This document shows positions 42,089-64,000 of a stretch of 64,000 nucleotides of DNA, one piece after another. The stretch lies in sequence record OR842557; one strand, written 5' to 3'. Every line of letters begins with the position of its first letter. Positions within the stretch are counted from its first letter, which is position 1. Origin of the DNA: Escherichia phage 04086. The notes beneath the pieces were generated by a model, which did not search any database, was not told the DNA's origin, and was given only the letters and a program-made list of their open reading frames with translations. The translations under genes were made by a program, and so were the position numbers.

Positions 42089-42538
42089 ATGGCTTACTCA
42101 GGGAAATTTAAACCTACAAACTTACAAAAATATAAAGGTGACTGGAAGAAAATCCAATATCGTTCCTCTTGGGAAGCATGGTTTATGCGTTGGCTTGACA
42201 ACCATCCTAATGTAGTCCAGTGGAATTCAGAAGAGGTGGTCATTCCTTACTTTTGCAATGCCGAAGGAAAGAAAAGACGATATTTTATGGACTTCTGGGT
42301 TAAATTTGATACGGGCCAACAATTCTTTTTTGAAGTCAAACCTTTTAAAGAAACCCATGCTCCTGCGGTGCCTGTTAAAATGACTACGGCTGCTAAAAAG
42401 AGATATATCAACGAACACTATACTTGGTCTGTTAATACTGATAAGTGGAAAGCAGCTAAAGCTACAGCAGATAAAATGGGTATCACCTTTAGATTGATTA
42501 CCGAACATTCACTGAAAAAATTAGGATGGAAAGGATGA
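42089..42538 (+). CDS. 4: Head completion protein gp4
   Basis: 149 aa (T4 gp4 150 aa); divergent from gene 53 as in T4. Confidence 0.7.
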
Positions 42539-43362
42539 GTATATTTTCCTACATCAATGAGGCTACTGAAACCACAAAGGGTTCCAAGCCCACCCGTTCA
42601 GAACAACAATGGATAACTTTAGGCGTTGAATATGCCAATGCCAAGGCTAAAGGTGTCTCGGCTAAGAAATTCGCTGAAGATAAAGGCATCAAGTATTCTA
42701 GTTTTACATCTGCGATGTCTCGATACTCGAGTCGAATTAAAACTGCTGTACAGGTTGAAAAACTTCAGAAGAAACCTGGCAATAAATTAACCAAAGCCGA
42801 ACGTCAATTAATTTTGGTGAATAGTTTTAGAAAGAGTATTCGTGATAAGATTGCTAACGAAGGCGCCGCTGTAAACAATAAATCAGCTAAATGGTTTACA
42901 GAAACATTAAAGAAAGGAATTCGTGGACACCAGGTATCTAAACCGTCTCCTGGCAAGCTTTATGCTTATATCTATGATGCCAAACATAAGGATACCCTAC
43001 CATACTGGGACAAATATCCTTTAATCATTTATCTTGGGTTAGGTAAGCATAATTTAATGTATGGGCTGAACTTACACTATATCCCGCCTAAAGCACGCCA
43101 ACAATTTCTGGAAGAATTGCTGAAGCAATACGCGAGTACGCCTACCATTACTAACTCGACTAAATTAAAAATCGATTGGAGCAAGGTAAAAGGATTCGCC
43201 GGCGCAGACGTTATGATTAAGGCTTATATCCCTGGAAATATCAAGGGCCCTTTAGTAGAGATAAAACCTGCTGATTGGGCTAATGTAATAGGATTACCAC
43301 TTCAACAATTTGTATCTAAAGGCAAGCGTTACTCAGCTCAGAAAGTTTGGAAGAAGGCATAA
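42526..43362 (+). CDS. 2: DNA end protector protein gp2
   Basis: 278 aa (T4 gp2 274 aa); synteny 4-2-3-1. Confidence 0.7.
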
Positions 43363-44012
43363 TGAATTACCAGAAAATATATTCTTCATTAATTACACGT
43401 GCTCAAGGACGAGCACTATCCTGTTATACAGAATCTCATCATATTTTACCTAGATGTATGGGTGGAGGCGATGAATCTACAAACTTAGTTGATTTAACTC
43501 CTGAAGAACATTATTTAGCACATCAACTATTAGTTAAAATGCATCCGGGACATCCTGGTCTAACTTTTGCAGCTATGACAATGACTCAAGGCCCTCGTCG
43601 TTCTAATAAGCTTTACGGTTGGCTTAAACGTAAGCACTCTGAGAATATCACAGCAACCCAAACAGGAAAGGTTTATTATAATAATGGCAAGAAGTGTATT
43701 AAGCTGTTTCCGGGTGAACCGATTCCTGAAGGATTTGTAAAGGGACGAGGATGGAGTCCTACAAAAGGAACCACTCATGATAGGAATAATGGCCATTTTG
43801 CCAATAAAGAACTCCAAGCGGAGCTTTCTAAACGGAGATGGGATAAAGCCAGAAAGGAAACTTGTGAACAATTTGGTGTGGATACTATAGAAGAGGCCAA
43901 GGATATGGTTCGGGCATTTAAAGCTACATGCCACGAAAGATACTGGATAAAACCAACTATAGCCAAATGGCCTTTTATGACACCAGTAAGACTACGTGAA
44001 TTTATAAAATAA
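43362..44012 (+). CDS. HNH homing endonuclease inserted between genes 2 and 3
   Basis: ORF 43347..44012; ATG at 43362 overlaps the gp2 stop; motif SHHILPRCMGGGDESTNLVDLTPEEHYLAH; paralog of 57594..58346. Confidence 0.8.
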   Translation: MNYQKIYSSLITRAQGRALSCYTESHHILPRCMGGGDESTNLVDLTPEEHYLAHQLLVKMHPGHPGLTFAAMTMTQGPRRSNKLYGWLKRKHSENITATQTGKVYYNNGKKCIKLFPGEPIPEGFVKGRGWSPTKGTTHDRNNGHFANKELQAELSKRRWDKARKETCEQFGVDTIEEAKDMVRAFKATCHERYWIKPTIAKWPFMTPVRLREFIK

Positions 44013-57580: not shown

Positions 57581-57593
57581 TATAAATACCCGT

Positions 57594-58346
57594 ATGAATT
57601 ATTTAAAAATATATGAATCTTTAATAGAATCCACTATTAAAAGACCTCACATATGTGGGTACACCGAAAAACATCATATTTTACCGAAATCGATGGGTGG
57701 TAGTGATTCTATTGATAACTTAGTCGACCTCACCGCCCGAGAACATTTTATTGCACACCTATTATTGGCACGGATTTTTAAAAATCGCGAAATGTGGTCC
57801 GCTGTATATATGATGGCTTCAACAAGCTTGTCAAACTCTGACAGACATAGATGTTCATCGCATTTGTACGAATTATTGCGAGAACGTGCATCAATATATA
57901 ATTCAGGTGAAAATTCTCCAAATTGGGGAATTAAACGTTCCGAAGAAACACGATTAAAAATGTCAATTTCGAAAATGGGTTCCAAAAATCCAATGTATGG
58001 GATTCCTCAATGCTCGGAACACACCAACAAAATTAGTCTTGGTGTTATTGAAGCTTTTAAAAATCCGGAAATAAAAGAGCGACATAGGCAAAGTGTTTCC
58101 GGGGAACTCAATGGGTTTTATGGAAAGAACCATTCCGAAAAAAGTTTGGAAAAACAACGGAATGCAAAACGGAAAGGATTTCCTTGGGACAATTATTCAG
58201 AATTGTACCCAATTTGGGTTTCATTAAATTGTCCCAAACATCCAACATTCACAAATGAACTTGTTAAATTGGGATATCCTAAAAAGAAACTTGTTCGAAT
58301 AGTGGAAGAATTTAAAAATGAATATCTTCGAAATGTTACGCCTTGA
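57594..58346 (+). CDS. HNH homing endonuclease between nudE and e
   Basis: Motif [31 protein letters not shown]; N-terminus [11 protein letters not shown] paralogous to 43362..44012. Confidence 0.8.
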
Positions 58347-59318: not shown

Positions 59319-59678
59319 ATGAAAACTTACCAACAATTTATTACTGAATCTACTCAGCGCATTAACGAAGCTATGTCTCCTGAACAGTTGGCTAAAGCTA
59401 AAGAAGGGCTGAACCCGTCCGAAGTCTTTAAAGTTACAGGTAAAGATTTCTCTTCCATGGCCACTAACCAAAGTCTGGCTAAAGAACTTAAATCTAAATC
59501 TAACTTCATTCATGCTACATGGAATGGTGATTCTCTTACTTCAATAAGTGTGTACAATAAAAAAGGTCTCCTTAAGAGTTCTTATGGCGCGGATGCCATC
59601 CGTGTTTCTAAATCAGATTGGCATAAAAACACTACTAAAGCAGAAAAACCTCATAACCCGGCACTTGACCATCTTTAA
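59319..59678 (+). CDS. Internal-protein-like protein with capsid targeting sequence
   Basis: N-terminus MKTYQQFITE; 119 aa; RBS taaggaataatATG. Confidence 0.6.
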   Translation: MKTYQQFITESTQRINEAMSPEQLAKAKEGLNPSEVFKVTGKDFSSMATNQSLAKELKSKSNFIHATWNGDSLTSISVYNKKGLLKSSYGADAIRVSKSDWHKNTTKAEKPHNPALDHL

Positions 59679-59686
59679 GGAATAAT

Positions 59687-59944
59687 ATGAAAACTTACCA
59701 GCAATTTATCGCAGAATCCACTTTAGTTTCTAAACGTTGGAATATGATTGTAAACGTTAAACCTTCCGGCACTGAAGTTTCTATGGCCGACCCTAATGAT
59801 GACGAACTTGAGCACGCTTTTAGCTCTAAAGAAACTGACGAGAAAGTGGTTAAGCAACTGGTTGCTGATGCAGACCAACTTCGTAAAGTAGCAGATGTTG
59901 TTAAGCTGTTTACTAAGAAAGGTTTTAAACACGAAGAGCGTTAA
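59687..59944 (+). CDS. Internal-protein-like protein with capsid targeting sequence
   Basis: N-terminus MKTYQQFIAE; 85 aa; same RBS context as 59319. Confidence 0.6.
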   Translation: MKTYQQFIAESTLVSKRWNMIVNVKPSGTEVSMADPNDDELEHAFSSKETDEKVVKQLVADADQLRKVADVVKLFTKKGFKHEER

Positions 59945-60101: not shown

Positions 60102-60644
60102 ATGAAATTTTTAACCGGTAGTTATCTATCCCTGATGAATGCTTTTGCAAACCATTCTGATGCTAGAGTAGAACACATTTGTAATAGTGGGTTTTATGTA
60201 CCTGATTCACAAACCCTGTTTAAAGAATGCTGCACCTTAAAACTTGATGGTGGGCGCCAATCCGGTAAAACTAAAGCAGTATCCATTTTTGCCACAGAAT
60301 GGTTAGCTAATGGCGGCTCTATTGTTATTTTATCTAATAACACGGCATATGCCAATGTTTCGGCTAGTGCAATCCGAAAGGAATATTTTAATAACCATAC
60401 AGAAAGTATTAAGTACCGTTTGTACACTGATTCTGTTCGTAGTTTTATTGGTAATACTGCATGCAAATTCCGTGGATTATCGCTTTCACGTGTTCTGTAT
60501 ATAATTGATGAGCCTGTTAAAACACCTAATATGGATAAGATTTATGATGCCCATATAAAGGTGGTGCAACATTGCTGTCATGCATCATGTGTCGAAACCA
60601 ATCAAACTGCTCGTCCTCTGTTCTTTGTGATAGGAATGCAATGA
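60102..60644 (+). CDS. Small P-loop NTPase-like protein
   Basis: 180 aa; Walker A-like GGRQSGKT and Walker B-like VLYIIDEP. Confidence 0.45.
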   Translation: MKFLTGSYLSLMNAFANHSDARVEHICNSGFYVPDSQTLFKECCTLKLDGGRQSGKTKAVSIFATEWLANGGSIVILSNNTAYANVSASAIRKEYFNNHTESIKYRLYTDSVRSFIGNTACKFRGLSLSRVLYIIDEPVKTPNMDKIYDAHIKVVQHCCHASCVETNQTARPLFFVIGMQ

Positions 60645-60937
60645 TGACCGATGAAGAACTTTTTGAGTTCTGTTATTTCTCACGTAAGGTCCGAAGAGAG
60701 GACCTTACTGCAAATTTCGAATATGCTTATTTCTACCCGCTAGAATACGTGTTCATGACAGGGCCCTTTAAGGGCTCTCGTTTTAGATGTCATGCTCCTA
60801 GTATCCGATTAATGAAACAGGTTCCTTACTTCACTCTCGAGTTCATCTCAGGGCCTTGTAAGGGTATTATTACTCGTAGTCTCTTGACTTATGACCAAGA
60901 GATTCATATGATTTCTGACTGGAAAAAATATGTCTAA
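60641..60937 (+). CDS. Hypothetical protein
   Basis: ORF track 60572; ATG at 60641 overlaps the upstream stop (ATGA); 98 aa. Confidence 0.4.
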   Translation: MMTDEELFEFCYFSRKVRREDLTANFEYAYFYPLEYVFMTGPFKGSRFRCHAPSIRLMKQVPYFTLEFISGPCKGIITRSLLTYDQEIHMISDWKKYV

Positions 60938-61148
60938 ATTGACAATTGAAGGTTCTGAAGAAGCTCTGAAAAGATTTGTTGAATGGCTTAATGGACCAGG
61001 TGAACAAGACTTTCTGGAAGTCTGGGATGGCGGTCGGTGGAATGGTAAAGAAATGATTTACCCGACTACCTATATCTCCGTGCAAGGTTGGACTGAAGGC
61101 CTTCGTTTGGTAGAATATGATATCGCAACTGGCGAGGAAGTGAAATGA
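60930..61148 (+). CDS. Hypothetical protein
   Basis: 72 aa coupled ORF. Confidence 0.4.
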   Translation: MSKLTIEGSEEALKRFVEWLNGPGEQDFLEVWDGGRWNGKEMIYPTTYISVQGWTEGLRLVEYDIATGEEVK

Positions 61149-61423
61149 TTGAAGATATCAAGGGTTACAAACCACATACCGACGATAAAATCGGTAAAGT
61201 GAATGCTATTAAAGATGCCGAAATTCGGTTAGGGCTGATGTTTAAAGCTCTAGAAGAAGAACATGTTACCTATTATATGAACTTAGATACCGAAGAGGTT
61301 TCTGAACAAGAACTAGACCAGGCTCATGAACGCATTACCCAGATTCGTAATGCAATTGACCGTCTTAAAGAAGCTAGTATGTGGGCTTGTCGTTCTGTGT
61401 TCCAACCAGAAGAAAAGTACTAA
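61145..61423 (+). CDS. Hypothetical protein
   Basis: 92 aa coupled ORF. Confidence 0.45.
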   Translation: MIEDIKGYKPHTDDKIGKVNAIKDAEIRLGLMFKALEEEHVTYYMNLDTEEVSEQELDQAHERITQIRNAIDRLKEASMWACRSVFQPEEKY

Positions 61424-61427
61424 AGCA

Positions 61428-61478
61428 GTTTACATCTCCTGTAGACGTGGTACTATAGACCTATCAACTACAGGAGAT
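61428..61478 (+). promoter_or_regulatory. Early promoter stem-loop cassette, near-identical to 58812-58860
   Basis: agcagtttacatctcctgtagacgtggtactatagacctatcaactacaggagatta. Confidence 0.6.
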
Positions 61479-61484
61479 TACAAA

Positions 61485-61943
61485 ATGTCAGAAATTAATT
61501 CAGAAGTATTCATCCGCCGCAACAAATTACGTCGTCAGTTCGAAACCGAATTCCGCGAACTGAATGCGTCCATCAAAAAAGCCGCCATTAAGAGCGGAGT
61601 CCCAGCCTTCTTTATTAAGTACTCTAATCACTTGTTAGACCGTGCTATCCAACGTGAAATCGACGAAAAATACGTTTTTGCTTTATTCAAGCAACTCCAT
61701 AACCATGTTAAAGAAATTCATGAATTTTTAATCCAGGAACCTCTGCCTGATGTAGAATCCGAAATTGTCCCTGGTAAAGTGTATCGCCCATTGCGTCTCG
61801 AAATTACCGATAAAACCTTATGGTTGGGTATGACCGTAGACCGTAAACATCCTGATAAAGGATACTCGTTAAAATGTCGTATGGCATTTGTTAACTCTAA
61901 ACGTTTAGAAGGTAAAACCAGCACGAAAGTAATTTACTTGTGA
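61485..61943 (+). CDS. Hypothetical protein
   Basis: ORF track 61326 overlaps the promoter; ATG at 61485 (MSEINSEVF) after RBS caggagatta; 152 aa. Confidence 0.45.
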   Translation: MSEINSEVFIRRNKLRRQFETEFRELNASIKKAAIKSGVPAFFIKYSNHLLDRAIQREIDEKYVFALFKQLHNHVKEIHEFLIQEPLPDVESEIVPGKVYRPLRLEITDKTLWLGMTVDRKHPDKGYSLKCRMAFVNSKRLEGKTSTKVIYL

Positions 61944-61950
61944 GGACAGT

Positions 61951-62685
61951 ATGGAAACTATAAAATATCCATATGACTACTATAAAATAATAAATGACGC
62001 CTTATCTAGGGATACACCTAATGATGCCTATACAGAAAAGCACCATATAATACCGAGTTGCGTTGGTGGTCCTGACACTCAAGACAATTTAGTTGAGCTT
62101 TATGCTGACGAACATTATTTGGCCCATATGTATCTAGCCAAAGCTAATCCAAACCACTATGGGTTGAATTTTGCTTGGCTAAATATGAGCTCTACTTCAA
62201 ATTCAAAACAAAGGTCTTATTTTGTAGATTCTGAAAATTATAAGTTGGCTAAAGAATCATTTTCAAAATTGCAATCTATTAATAAAATTTTATTTTTCTC
62301 TAAAAAGGAAAATAGGGCTGCTCATTCAATGGCTTTAATAAAGTATTTTGAAAAGGAAGGCTCTAAAGAACGGCTCAAAGAAATTTTAAATTCGCCAAAA
62401 GTAAAAGCTAAAATGTCTGAAAAACGGGTTAAGTATTTTGAAAATCCTGAAAATAGACAAAAATTTAAAGCCATACAAAATTCTAAAGAAACTATAGAAA
62501 GGAAAAAAGCCTCTTTGCGGAAATCCCCTATATGGCATGAACCGATGTATTCACAATTATATAAATTATGGGTAGATAATAATAAACTCAAGTGTGGAAG
62601 ATTTAGTAAAATCGCAATTAAGAACGGCTTCCCTAATGTAGATTACCGAGGACTTATTGATTATGATTTTTCTAAAAAAACTTAA
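61951..62685 (+). CDS. HNH homing endonuclease (third copy, more divergent)
   Basis: Motif EKHHIIPSCVGGPDTQDNLVELYADEHYLAH; basic Lys-rich C-terminal half. Confidence 0.7.
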   Translation: METIKYPYDYYKIINDALSRDTPNDAYTEKHHIIPSCVGGPDTQDNLVELYADEHYLAHMYLAKANPNHYGLNFAWLNMSSTSNSKQRSYFVDSENYKLAKESFSKLQSINKILFFSKKENRAAHSMALIKYFEKEGSKERLKEILNSPKVKAKMSEKRVKYFENPENRQKFKAIQNSKETIERKKASLRKSPIWHEPMYSQLYKLWVDNNKLKCGRFSKIAIKNGFPNVDYRGLIDYDFSKKT

Positions 62686-63220
62686 ATATTCTTTAATAGT
62701 GGCTATTATGTGTGGTTCGTTTTCTGTAAGTGCAGCAGAACCCGTATTTACAGAAACCCAGCTTGATAATTTACATTATGCGTATGCTTTCGGTGAACAA
62801 TACCAAAAGTCGGGAAAGTTCAAAGAAACCCCTAATCAAAAAGGATTAGGATATATCATGGCCGGATTACTATGGCAGGAATCATCCGCCGGAATTAATC
62901 AAGGTTTAAATAAAGATAAGCACCATGCTTATGGCATGTTCCAAAATTACTTGCCTACGTTAAGAAGTCGTGTTCAACAGGTAGGTTGGAAGATGTCTGA
63001 TAAAGAAATAATTCGTATGGTCCAAAAACGACAGAACAGTGCCTCTTGGGCCTACATTGAGCTGTCTTATTGGATTGATGTTCACAAAGGTGACCTGAGA
63101 AAAGCGATTGCTTCTTATAATGCGGGCTGGAACGTCAAAGCAGGCAGTAAGTATGCTTCTGAAGTTCTAGAAAAGGCCAATTACCTAAAATCTAAAAAGA
63201 TGTTTGAGGCGGTATATTAA
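62663..63220 (+). CDS. Lytic transglycosylase (SLT domain) with N-terminal signal peptide
   Basis: Signal-like MIFLKKLKYSLIVAIMCGSFSVSA; SLT motifs LWQESSAG (catalytic Glu), YGMFQ, SYNAG; ORF track start 62657 is TTG. Confidence 0.75.
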   Translation: MIFLKKLKYSLIVAIMCGSFSVSAAEPVFTETQLDNLHYAYAFGEQYQKSGKFKETPNQKGLGYIMAGLLWQESSAGINQGLNKDKHHAYGMFQNYLPTLRSRVQQVGWKMSDKEIIRMVQKRQNSASWAYIELSYWIDVHKGDLRKAIASYNAGWNVKAGSKYASEVLEKANYLKSKKMFEAVY

Positions 63221-63577
63221 ATGATTAAGCAGATGACTATAGCGCTTATGTTGATTGCTCCGGGAGTATTAGCGTCACAAGTTGATGATAGTAATAATTC
63301 AATTGTCGAGTATGCTACCCGTACAGCAAAAGATTATTGTCATCCGAGTAATACTGAATGCATTATCGAATTCAGTTCAAAAATCACAGCTGCTTTTAAA
63401 GATGGCCAGAATGACGTAGAGCATCGCCGAATGAAAGAGAAAACTCTTTCTAAAAGATACGAGCAACGTCTAAACGTTACTGAATGTATTCCGTCTGATA
63501 AAAAGTACAAAGAAATGTGCGCGTCTATGGTAGACAGACTCGTTGACTCTTACAACCGAGGATTAAACTCTAAATGA
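63221..63577 (+). CDS. Small secreted / periplasmic Cys-containing protein
   Basis: Signal peptide MIKQMTIALMLIAPGVLAS; four Cys in mature part; coupled to the SLT gene. Confidence 0.5.
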   Translation: MIKQMTIALMLIAPGVLASQVDDSNNSIVEYATRTAKDYCHPSNTECIIEFSSKITAAFKDGQNDVEHRRMKEKTLSKRYEQRLNVTECIPSDKKYKEMCASMVDRLVDSYNRGLNSK

Positions 63578-64000
63578 TTATTGATTATATTAAGGGCGAT
63601 ATTGTCGCCCTGTTTCTTCAAGGTAATAATGTTGCGCACGGGTGCAACTGTTTCCACACAATGGGTTCAGGCGTAGCTGGACAATTAGCTAAGGCTTATC
63701 CGCCTATTCTCGCTATTGATAAAACCACTTATTTAGGCCATTTGGAAAAACTTGGCACGTTTACTCAAGCCACAGGTAATAAGGGCCAAATTTGCTATAA
63801 TTTATACACCCAATACGAACCGGGCCCTAATCTTGATTACGGTGCTTTAGTAAACTGTATGATAGAATTAAACCGTACCGCAAAGGGTCTTTTGTTTAAA
63901 CCAAGAATTTATATCCCTCGCATCGGTTGTGGTATTGCTAGTGGTGATTGGGACAAGGTTTATCAATTGATTAATTTGTTTACTCCTGATATTAATTTAG
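63574..64000 (+). CDS. Macro-domain protein (ADP-ribose binding / hydrolase family), C-terminus beyond window
   Basis: GDIVALFLQGNNVAHGCNCFHTMGSGVAGQLAKAYP parallels the macro motif GDIT..VNAAN..LGGGVAGAI; second motif IPRIGCGIASG; ATGA overlap with upstream stop. Confidence 0.7.
   Translation, partial: MIIDYIKGDIVALFLQGNNVAHGCNCFHTMGSGVAGQLAKAYPPILAIDKTTYLGHLEKLGTFTQATGNKGQICYNLYTQYEPGPNLDYGALVNCMIELNRTAKGLLFKPRIYIPRIGCGIASGDWDKVYQLINLFTPDINL

Follow-up and report, generated by a model that had tools for sequence, protein, structure and literature searches.

The window analysed here, a stretch of 64,000 nucleotides from Escherichia phage 04086 (record OR842557), is DNA of a Dhakavirus, a JS98/WG01-like T-even coliphage, and its best match is phage PSD2002 (98.4%). 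On the + strand the genes follow one another in the order vs.8, vs.7, an unnamed ORF, vs.4, regB, an ORF with an HNH endonuclease core (hereafter the HNH ORF), vs.1, vs and tk.4, the last of which encodes a macro domain. The HNH ORF and the genes on either side of it are located as follows.

61485..61943, + strand: regB, encoding a site-specific endoribonuclease; resident left flank (Pfam REGB_T4, E 1.5e-68)
61951..62685, + strand: HNH ORF, from an ATG at 61951 to a TAA at 62683-62685; 244 aa
62663..63220, + strand: vs.1, resident lytic-transglycosylase-like gene; right flank (PHROG 600, E 3e-64)
63221-63577, + strand: vs, directly after vs.1

The regB gene of the window is 98-100% identical to regB of Bp7 and JS98, and the gene order regB-vs.1-vs is fixed across T4-like phages. 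In T4 regB is followed, after a 7-nt gap, by vs.1, and in Bp7, E33 and JS98 regB and vs.1 are 12 nt apart, the HNH ORF being absent from all four. The same holds for IMG/VR, where 21 of 21 loci with a vs.1 that is 57-89% identical to that of the window have regB directly upstream without an HNH ORF. As HNH-less relatives keep regB directly before vs.1, these comparisons identify vs.1 as a fixed resident gene and not as cargo. The vs.1 product is 185 aa long in the window, as against 179 aa in HNH-less Dhakavirus.

That vs.1 encodes a secreted lytic transglycosylase, as the original prediction had it, is plausible judging from its sequence. In an alignment of 41 sequences the catalytic Glu-Ser pair has an invariant E73 and a nearly invariant S74, the G-x-F-Q motif does not vary at G91 and Q94 and hardly varies at F93, and Y-N-A-G is constant at Y152, N153 and G155 and almost constant at A154. 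The Pfam SLT profile (PF01464) scores the window protein at 15.9 bits (E 0.01), below its threshold of 21.3; a precomputed PF01464 match exists in 19 of the 89 clusters of vs.1 homologues. A profile search of vs.1 against PDB gave no sequence match and a search of NCBIfam gave no match. The AlphaFold2 (AF2) model of vs.1 has a pLDDT of 85, and when it was compared with PDB by Foldseek the top 14 structures were all MltD, Slt or goose-type lysozymes (probability 0.85-0.99, TM 0.38-0.45, E at least 0.025). By inspection, a Sec-type signal peptide is found at the N-terminus of the window protein and of nearly all homologues. A lipoprotein signal was considered as well and rejected on inspection, the sequence AIMC being unlike a lipobox.

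An HNH ORF of the MobD family

The 244-aa protein matches PHROG 655, 'homing endonuclease', over residues 9-236 (E 3.2e-36), and BLASTP aligns it with T4 MobD at 37% identity over 217 aa (residues 27-236, E 7e-35), a match that takes in the C-terminal module PIW...LW...G.F...G.P..Y. The label 'homing endonuclease' is already carried by the ORF in the GenBank records of IME540, NC-G and Lion_ER11. The family as a whole counts 11,055 representatives at E <=1e-3, of which only five reach E 1e-30; close full-length relatives are therefore few. Three regions can be distinguished in the protein.

62029..62136, + strand: HNH (beta-beta-alpha-metal) catalytic core, residues 27-62, YTEKHHIIPSCVGGPDTQDNLVELYADEHYLAHMYL
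62251..62535, + strand: Lys-rich helical middle region, residues 101-195 (20% Lys), presumed DNA-binding linker
62518..62670, + strand: C-terminal MobD-type module, R..PIW..Y..L..LW...K.G.F...A...G.P..Y..L, presumed sequence-specific DNA-binding domain

The core stretch reads YTEKHHIIPSCVGGPDTQDNLVELYADEHYLAH and retains H31/H32, N46, H55 and H59, residues that are invariant or nearly invariant in an alignment of 18 sequences, with which a second alignment agrees. In the AF2 model this stretch folds as a strand (29-32), a second strand (47-50) and a helix (52-65) with pLDDT values of 81-92, so that the core has, as modelled, a beta-beta-alpha topology. The HNH motifs of McrA and of a group II intron maturase align with it in a sequence search of PDB, marginally (E about 0.04), and fold searches with the model gave no significant match to any solved HNH nuclease. 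With the Pfam HNH profile (PF01844) the window protein scores 16.4 bits, the gathering cut-off being 21.4, whereas the Lion_ER11 orthologue, 50% identical to it, lies above the cut-off at 24.2 bits. The middle region aligns with the NUMOD3-repeat region of one of the paralogues in the window (57594-58346) and of the proteins P0003 and P0006; a Pfam profile search of the 244-aa protein itself gave no NUMOD3 match. The C-terminal module is common to T4 MobD and five other full-length relatives, and AF2 confidence over it is low, below 50.

I-HmuI of phage SPO1, for which a structure is available, serves as the model of a phage HNH homing enzyme; it is a nickase in which an N-terminal beta-beta-alpha-metal domain is followed by extended DNA-binding modules. 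It is intron-encoded, whereas the window ORF is free-standing, and PDB and fold searches with the window ORF gave no significant sequence or fold match to solved homing HNH enzymes.

Two further ORFs of the window, 43368-44012 and 57594-58346, have the same HNH core and belong to PHROG 655. The former is placed after the DNA end-protector gene and is 42% identical to the ORF at 61951-62685 over 84 aa; the latter is flanked by a nudix gene and the lysozyme gene e and is 31% identical over 215 aa. Both match PHROG 655 more strongly (E 1.5e-53 and 4.8e-56, as against 3e-36) than the ORF studied here. The original prediction had described the ORF at 61951-62685 as a third, more divergent HNH gene with the same core, a Lys-rich C-terminal half and a different N-terminus, and had given its coordinates exactly as we find them. 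The description agrees with the two other ORFs, with the retained core residues, with the weaker PHROG match and subthreshold Pfam score, and with a Lys content of 20% at residues 101-200 as compared to 6% at residues 1-100. As to the N-terminus it is only partly right, as residues 1-26 still align to the N-terminal helix of the family.

The HNH ORF is compositionally foreign, its GC content being 31.0% as compared to 38-40% in the neighbouring genes. Differences among its alleles are predominantly synonymous (synonymous to non-synonymous 9:2, 19:10 and 26:8), and this excess is found along the whole ORF, indicating that the ORF is under purifying selection and has been kept functional.

Signals for independent expression were sought on the DNA. 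The T4 late promoter consensus, TATAAATA, does not occur in or near the HNH ORF, and sigma-70-like sites are no more numerous than shuffling would give (11 as compared to 7.7 +/- 2.8). A search of the + strand inside the ORF found no terminator, and hairpins sequestering the ribosome binding site, of the kind present in mobE and I-TevI, received no support (z-scores -0.97, +1.71 and +0.23). Given no excess of promoters, no late consensus and no internal terminator or hairpin, the HNH ORF is therefore probably expressed by read-through from regB, by way of a GAGGA that overlaps the regB stop codon.

Boundaries and distribution of the cassette

To define the extent of the inserted DNA, alleles of five HNH-carrying and nine HNH-less Dhakavirus were aligned over window positions 60700-64000. 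Outside 61934-62761 not a single column of this region separates the two groups. By this alignment, the mobile unit is the sharply bounded segment 61934-62761, comprising the HNH ORF and a substitute 5' end of vs.1, and the cassette amounts to about 828 bp in place of about 110 bp. Its landmarks are the following.

61934..61950, + strand: left cassette edge; regB ends in ATTTACTTG TGA, in HNH-less alleles in ATCTATCTT TAA
61942..61946, + strand: Shine-Dalgarno GAGGA of the HNH ORF, overlapping the regB stop TGA (61941-61943), 4 nt before the ATG
62648..62652, + strand: Shine-Dalgarno GAGGA of vs.1, within the HNH coding sequence, 10 nt before the ATG at 62663
62663..62761, + strand: cassette-borne 5' end of vs.1, with the start codon, the signal peptide MIFLKKLKYSLIVAIMCGSFSVSA and the first mature residues AEPVFTETQ
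62674..62680, + strand: run of seven A (A7) in the 23-nt overlap of the HNH ORF and vs.1; A8 in PSD2002 shifts both frames
62738..62761, + strand: right cassette edge; GAACCCGTATTTACAGAAACCCAG is a recoded form of the candidate homing site, GAGCCTACTTTCAGTAATGAACAA in HNH-less alleles

On the left side the first discriminating columns are 61934, 61937 and 61938; the last three regB codons are synonymously recoded, the stop codon is changed from TAA to TGA and the spacer is shortened from 12 to 7 nt. On the right side homology picks up again inside vs.1 at CTTGATAATTTACAT, the last fixed difference being at 62761. The vs.1 ATG at 62663 lies inside the HNH ORF, the two reading frames overlapping by 23 nt, in keeping with the earlier observation that the HNH stop overlaps the start of the SLT gene, and both the Shine-Dalgarno and the ATG of vs.1 are within the last 38 nt of the HNH ORF. 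The vs.1 product begins with MIFLKKLKYSLIVAIMCGSFSVSAAEPVFTETQ in the cassette and with MKKVLATLLLTVSMSAYSVEPTFSNEQ in HNH-less alleles. A replacement 5' end of similar type is found in the HNH-carrying alleles of Jiaodavirus and of the metagenome contig L034, so that it is cassette-specific in three lineages, and the cassette-type N-terminus occurs in only three of the 89 clusters of vs.1 homologues. In Jiaodavirus the vs.1 Shine-Dalgarno is AAGGGA, at the same spacing as in the window. In Jiaodavirus and L034 the HNH ORF begins at the Shine-Dalgarno and ATG that serve vs.1 in the empty alleles; from these sequences, the insertion point is effectively the vs.1 start codon, so that the cassette occupies the ribosome-binding position of vs.1 and brings along a second start for it.

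Empty alleles have an uninterrupted spacer of 7-12 nt between regB and vs.1. An intron- or intein-encoded endonuclease was rejected on this basis, the empty alleles showing an intact intergenic spacer and no split gene.

The overlap of the two ORFs by 23 nt, together with the finding that all copies found of this HNH lineage adjoin vs.1, could be taken to mean that the HNH gene and the whole of vs.1 moved in as one mobile module of two genes, and the original prediction had suggested such joint mobilisation, with synteny across T-even genomes as its check. We consider this highly improbable, as T4 and all HNH-less relatives examined have vs.1 flanked by regB and vs, from 62762 on vs.1 is the usual Dhakavirus allele and shows no base that goes with the cassette, and the GC content of vs.1 past the boundary is 38.9% whereas that of the HNH ORF is 31.0%. 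The synteny comparison refutes the suggestion for the gene as a whole: the HNH and SLT genes do not travel together, vs.1 following regB without an HNH gene in T4, Bp7, E33 and JS98, in the 36 other Dhakavirus-type and the 27 other Jiaodavirus records listed, and in the 21 IMG/VR loci. What the suggestion had right is confined to the first ~100 bp of vs.1 (62663-62761), which do belong to the mobile unit. The linkage of the HNH ORF to vs.1 is physical, but it is a linkage to a gene fragment, brought about by site-specific insertion, and not that of a two-gene module.

The insertion is rare, at most a few per cent of otherwise collinear genomes having it, with the boundaries always the same. 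In a tblastn search of 50,697 phage records the protein was found at 95% identity or above in four, namely PSD2002, NC-G, IME540 and vB_EcoM_FB, and at about 52% in three Klebsiella Jiaodavirus phages, every other match being at most 36%. Among 97 records that match the flanks, four span the ORF, and 36 others among those listed match both flanks across a gap of ~725 bp. In Jiaodavirus an orthologue, about 50-52% identical, is carried by Merci, Lion_ER11 and KLB8, three of 231 matching records, and 27 others among those listed are 728 bp shorter at this place. A third lineage (P0016, on the Logan contig L034) is 59% identical and sits in a T4-like backbone that is ~75-78% identical to Dhakavirus. 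The three HNH lineages, with mutual identities of 50-59%, are thus all found at the same regB/vs.1 junction and with the same 23-nt overlap. The Dhakavirus-type cassette is present on two further metagenome contigs; scans of IMG/VR and of JGI metagenomes yielded no further relatives of the HNH protein, the extra copies having come from exact-protein look-ups.

The cassettes of IME540 and NC-G are identical and yet their left flanks are clearly divergent, which suggests, as far as these sequences go, recent spread. The flanks vary also in an extra ORF of 209 bp upstream of regB, which is present in IME540, FB and NC-G as well as in HNH-less E33 and missing in the window and in PSD2002. Full-length copies of the HNH ORF are found in the window and in three of the four GenBank Dhakavirus genomes that carry it. 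Broken copies are those of Merci (at an A8 run), L034 (near the 5' end) and PSD2002 (at the A7/A8 run in the overlap); these frameshifts may represent the decay expected of selfish endonuclease genes, and they may also be homopolymer sequencing errors.

One could ask whether the HNH ORF is a decaying or inactive relic that is kept only for the vs.1 start codon and signal peptide embedded in it. The broken relatives Merci, L034 and PSD2002 would agree with this, as would the Pfam HNH score below threshold, the rarity of the allele, as expected late in a homing cycle, and the fact that MobD activity has never been demonstrated (PMC2988022). Nevertheless, the window copy and three of four GenBank Dhakavirus copies are full length, the catalytic residues are all retained, the synonymous excess extends across the whole ORF and is not confined to its 3' end, and identical cassettes in different flanks suggest recent spread. 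On balance we regard a relic as improbable and favour an endonuclease gene that has been kept functional.

HNH domains have terminase-associated or other non-homing roles elsewhere, and the HNH ORF might perform a task for the phage itself, either in the manner of a terminase-associated HNH protein (HK97-like) or as a nuclease directed against host or competitor DNA. Marker exclusion driven by an endonuclease does benefit the carrier phage (PMC2988022), which fits a role of this kind. Against it, the great majority of viable sister genomes are without the gene, the locus belongs to the early regB-tk region, away from the packaging genes, the protein is built along its whole length like a T4 Mob protein, and the insertion is site-specific in three lineages. 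We hold such a non-homing role to be scarcely credible, and the reading as a homing endonuclease is followed below.

Probable homing, candidate target and possible retention of the cassette

Based on these comparisons it is very likely that the segment 61934-62761 is, or recently was, a MobD-like HNH homing endonuclease cassette. The free-standing endonucleases of T4, which spread by 'intronless homing', are intergenic, co-oriented with their neighbours and often promoterless, being read from the upstream gene; their target is in a conserved gene next to them, and double-strand-break repair with co-conversion accounts for their spread (PMC2988022). The cassette gene would likewise be promoterless and transcribed along with regB. 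On co-infection with an endonuclease-less relative the enzyme would then nick or cut the DNA of that relative somewhere in the ~110 bp displaced by the cassette, the likeliest cut site being the conserved vs.1 stretch GAGCC-ACTTTCAGTAATG, and recombinational repair off the cassette-bearing genome would copy in the cassette and, with it, the recoded flanks, which would resist cleavage. The changes at the two edges, in the 3' end of regB and the 5' end of vs.1, would agree with co-conversion in the past. As T-even genomes are mosaic, the insertion could also spread by ordinary recombination.

The position of the target can be narrowed by considering which bases distinguish carriers from empty alleles. 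A carrier must be immune to its own enzyme, and within +/-1.2 kb fixed differences between carrier and empty alleles are found only in the replaced segment; if the target is nearby, it should therefore lie inside the ~110 bp. The columns discriminating occupied from empty alleles cluster at the right edge, which reads ACTTTCAGT in empty alleles and GTATTTACA or TTATTTACT in occupied ones. The candidate core ACTTTCAGTAATG is invariant in endonuclease-less alleles and recoded in every endonuclease-carrying one, and TTCAGTAATG is invariant across 16 HNH-less haplotypes, T4 included. In addition, the peak of DNA conservation in vs.1, at +49 to +124 from the ATG in ten empty-allele lineages, spans the candidate site, and a search of the window for the empty-site sequence found no copy of it. 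We tentatively propose the ACTTTCAGTAATG stretch in vs.1 as the target, an assignment to which we give somewhat less than even weight. The cut made by a free-standing endonuclease can lie hundreds to thousands of bp away from its gene (PMC2988022), and therefore the target may fall outside the replaced segment; also, the clustering of the discriminating bases may just reflect shared ancestry of the cassettes.

The window protein is built like T4 MobD throughout, the HNH core coming first, a basic helical region next and the PIW...LW...G.F...G.P..Y module last, and both are members of PHROG 655; both genes are free-standing, co-oriented with their neighbours and without a dedicated late promoter. 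They differ in location, as mobD sits between nrdC.11 and mobD.1 whereas the window ORF is at regB/vs.1, and the window protein is 15 aa shorter, the 3' end of its gene providing the start of the downstream gene. The functional analogy to MobD is one of family membership alone, the activity and target of MobD being given as 'not determined' in a review of 2010 (PMC2988022).

T4 mobE, located between nrdA and nrdB, is likewise a promoterless HNH cassette between conserved genes that is read on the upstream transcript, and its initiation region touches the upstream stop codon; as in the window, one would look for the target in the conserved gene alongside and expect the flanks to be co-converted (PMC2988022). 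Unlike the window ORF, MobE has an experimentally established activity and a mapped target: it cuts nrdB of T2 and drives trans-homing. The mobE gene also has an internal terminator and a hairpin sequestering the ribosome binding site, neither of which was found in the window ORF, and between mobE and the downstream gene there is a middle promoter and not a start codon.

Signals of the downstream gene are sometimes embedded in a T4 endonuclease ORF (PMC2988022). With segG/segA, segE, mobB and mobC the window ORF shares the arrangement in which the endonuclease ORF holds expression signals of the downstream gene, disfavouring deletion (PMC2988022). In the T4 seg and mob genes the embedded signals are promoters, whereas the window ORF contains the Shine-Dalgarno and start codon of vs.1, and the cassette supplies its whole signal-peptide segment, which gives the resident protein a different N-terminus; SegG, moreover, is a GIY-YIG enzyme and the window ORF encodes an HNH enzyme. 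As vs.1 has its start inside the endonuclease ORF, a precise deletion of the cassette would leave vs.1 without its beginning, which would favour retention. To replace the beginning of a resident secreted enzyme, start codon and signal peptide included, would be a variation on the 'embedded promoter' means of retention that is already known.

A more far-reaching proposal is that the cassette captured the vs.1 initiation site in three lineages for its own use and returned a substitute Shine-Dalgarno, start codon and signal peptide to the resident periplasmic transglycosylase. A single recoded segment of ~100 bp would then provide self-immunity, expression and export of vs.1, and a cost to losing the endonuclease, amounting to an addiction-like 'start-codon capture' across genera. 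We think this rather unlikely as it stands; if true, it would assign the MobD family, as yet uncharacterised, a target of known position.

The T4 insertion sites that have been tabulated (PMC2988022) do not include regB/vs.1, and a literature search of limited coverage found no paper on this junction as an insertion site. The junction represents a homing site not listed for T4, at which three diverged MobD-like lineages are found in different genera, and the sharp bounds of the cassette together with the recoded ACTTTCAGTAATG make for a directly testable target candidate for an enzyme of the MobD family. The main value of the analysis is a clean annotation, namely that of a typical selfish free-standing T-even homing endonuclease beside a resident transglycosylase-like gene. 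Since phages of the Dhakavirus type are used in therapy cocktails, marker exclusion by the endonuclease between co-applied Dhakavirus strains would be of some practical interest.

Homopolymer runs at the ends of the HNH cassette

The overlap between the MobD-like HNH gene (61951-62685) and the resident lytic-transglycosylase-like gene vs.1 contains a run of seven adenines in the window (62674-62680), which in Dhakavirus PSD2002 is A8 (about 2877-2884 of locus L001), and the extra A shifts the reading frame of both ORFs. The PSD2002 annotation accordingly gives the HNH gene as 747 bp and begins vs.1 at a downstream ATG. The eighth A is either genuine, in which case the slip is inactivating, or an artefact of sequencing through a homopolymer. 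Near their 5' ends, two other HNH orthologues are frameshifted, that of Jiaodavirus Merci at an A8 run (L004 2921-2990) and that of the metagenomic T4-like contig L034 (2800-2830), and the vs.1 start carries A5 in KPV15 (L011/L031) versus A6 in L032. Indels seem to be favoured by homopolymer runs at both ends of the cassette.

The 5' region of vs.1 and a signal-peptide-like segment in Vs

Among the HNH-less loci L002 and L018-L029, the first ~80 nt of vs.1, which encode the signal peptide, are almost identical in DNA between lineages whose vs.1 proteins are just 63-89% identical overall. Such sameness at the DNA level is unusual for a signal peptide. One possible cause is gene conversion in the surroundings of the candidate homing site, another a constraint at the RNA or DNA level.

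The product of the next gene, Vs (63221-63577), annotated as 'valyl-tRNA synthetase modifier', has an N-terminal signal-peptide-like segment, MIKQMTIALMLIAPGVLAS, and the annotators of KLB8 flag a signal peptide as well. A signal peptide is odd here, since the enzyme that Vs is said to modify is cytoplasmic.

Other HNH genes and variable loci

Further features of the window are:
43368-44012, first HNH ORF, PHROG 655 (E 1.5e-53)
57594-58346, second HNH ORF, flanked by the nudix and lysozyme e genes
60102-60644, ORF of PHROG 1488 with weak P-loop/terminase-N similarity
about 61145-61423, vs.4, upstream of regB

An exact T4 late-promoter consensus, TATAAATA, lies at 57581-57588 and ends 5 nt 5' of the ATG of the second HNH ORF, which contains three NUMOD3 repeats; unlike it, the HNH ORF at 61951-62685 has neither this consensus nor NUMOD3 repeats. 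The first HNH ORF is probably another free-standing endonuclease. Directly 5' of it is the DNA end-protector gene (42526-43362), its end overlapped by that ORF.

The ORF at 60102-60644 occurs in Dhakavirus as two very divergent allele types (36-50 differing positions per 100 nt), whereas its flanking genes are nearly identical. The adjacent ORFs 59319-59678 and 59687-59944 share the N-terminal peptide MKTYQQFI(T/A)EST and are apparently tandem paralogues.

The vs.4-regB interval

Homologues of vs.4 (L034 1782-2063; L035 1002-1265) carry the Pfam family Acb2_Tad1_hairpin in precomputed annotations, and by this family assignment vs.4 is a predicted homologue of the anti-CBASS sponge Acb2.

Between vs.4 and regB some genomes have an extra 209-bp ORF of 69 aa with no annotation (L003 and L005 1624-1833, L006 1621-1830, L007 237-446). 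The ORF is present in E33, QL01, IME540, FB and NC-G and missing from the window (about 61423), PSD2002, Bp7 and JS98; after the HNH cassette it forms the second presence/absence polymorphism, and the two are independent.
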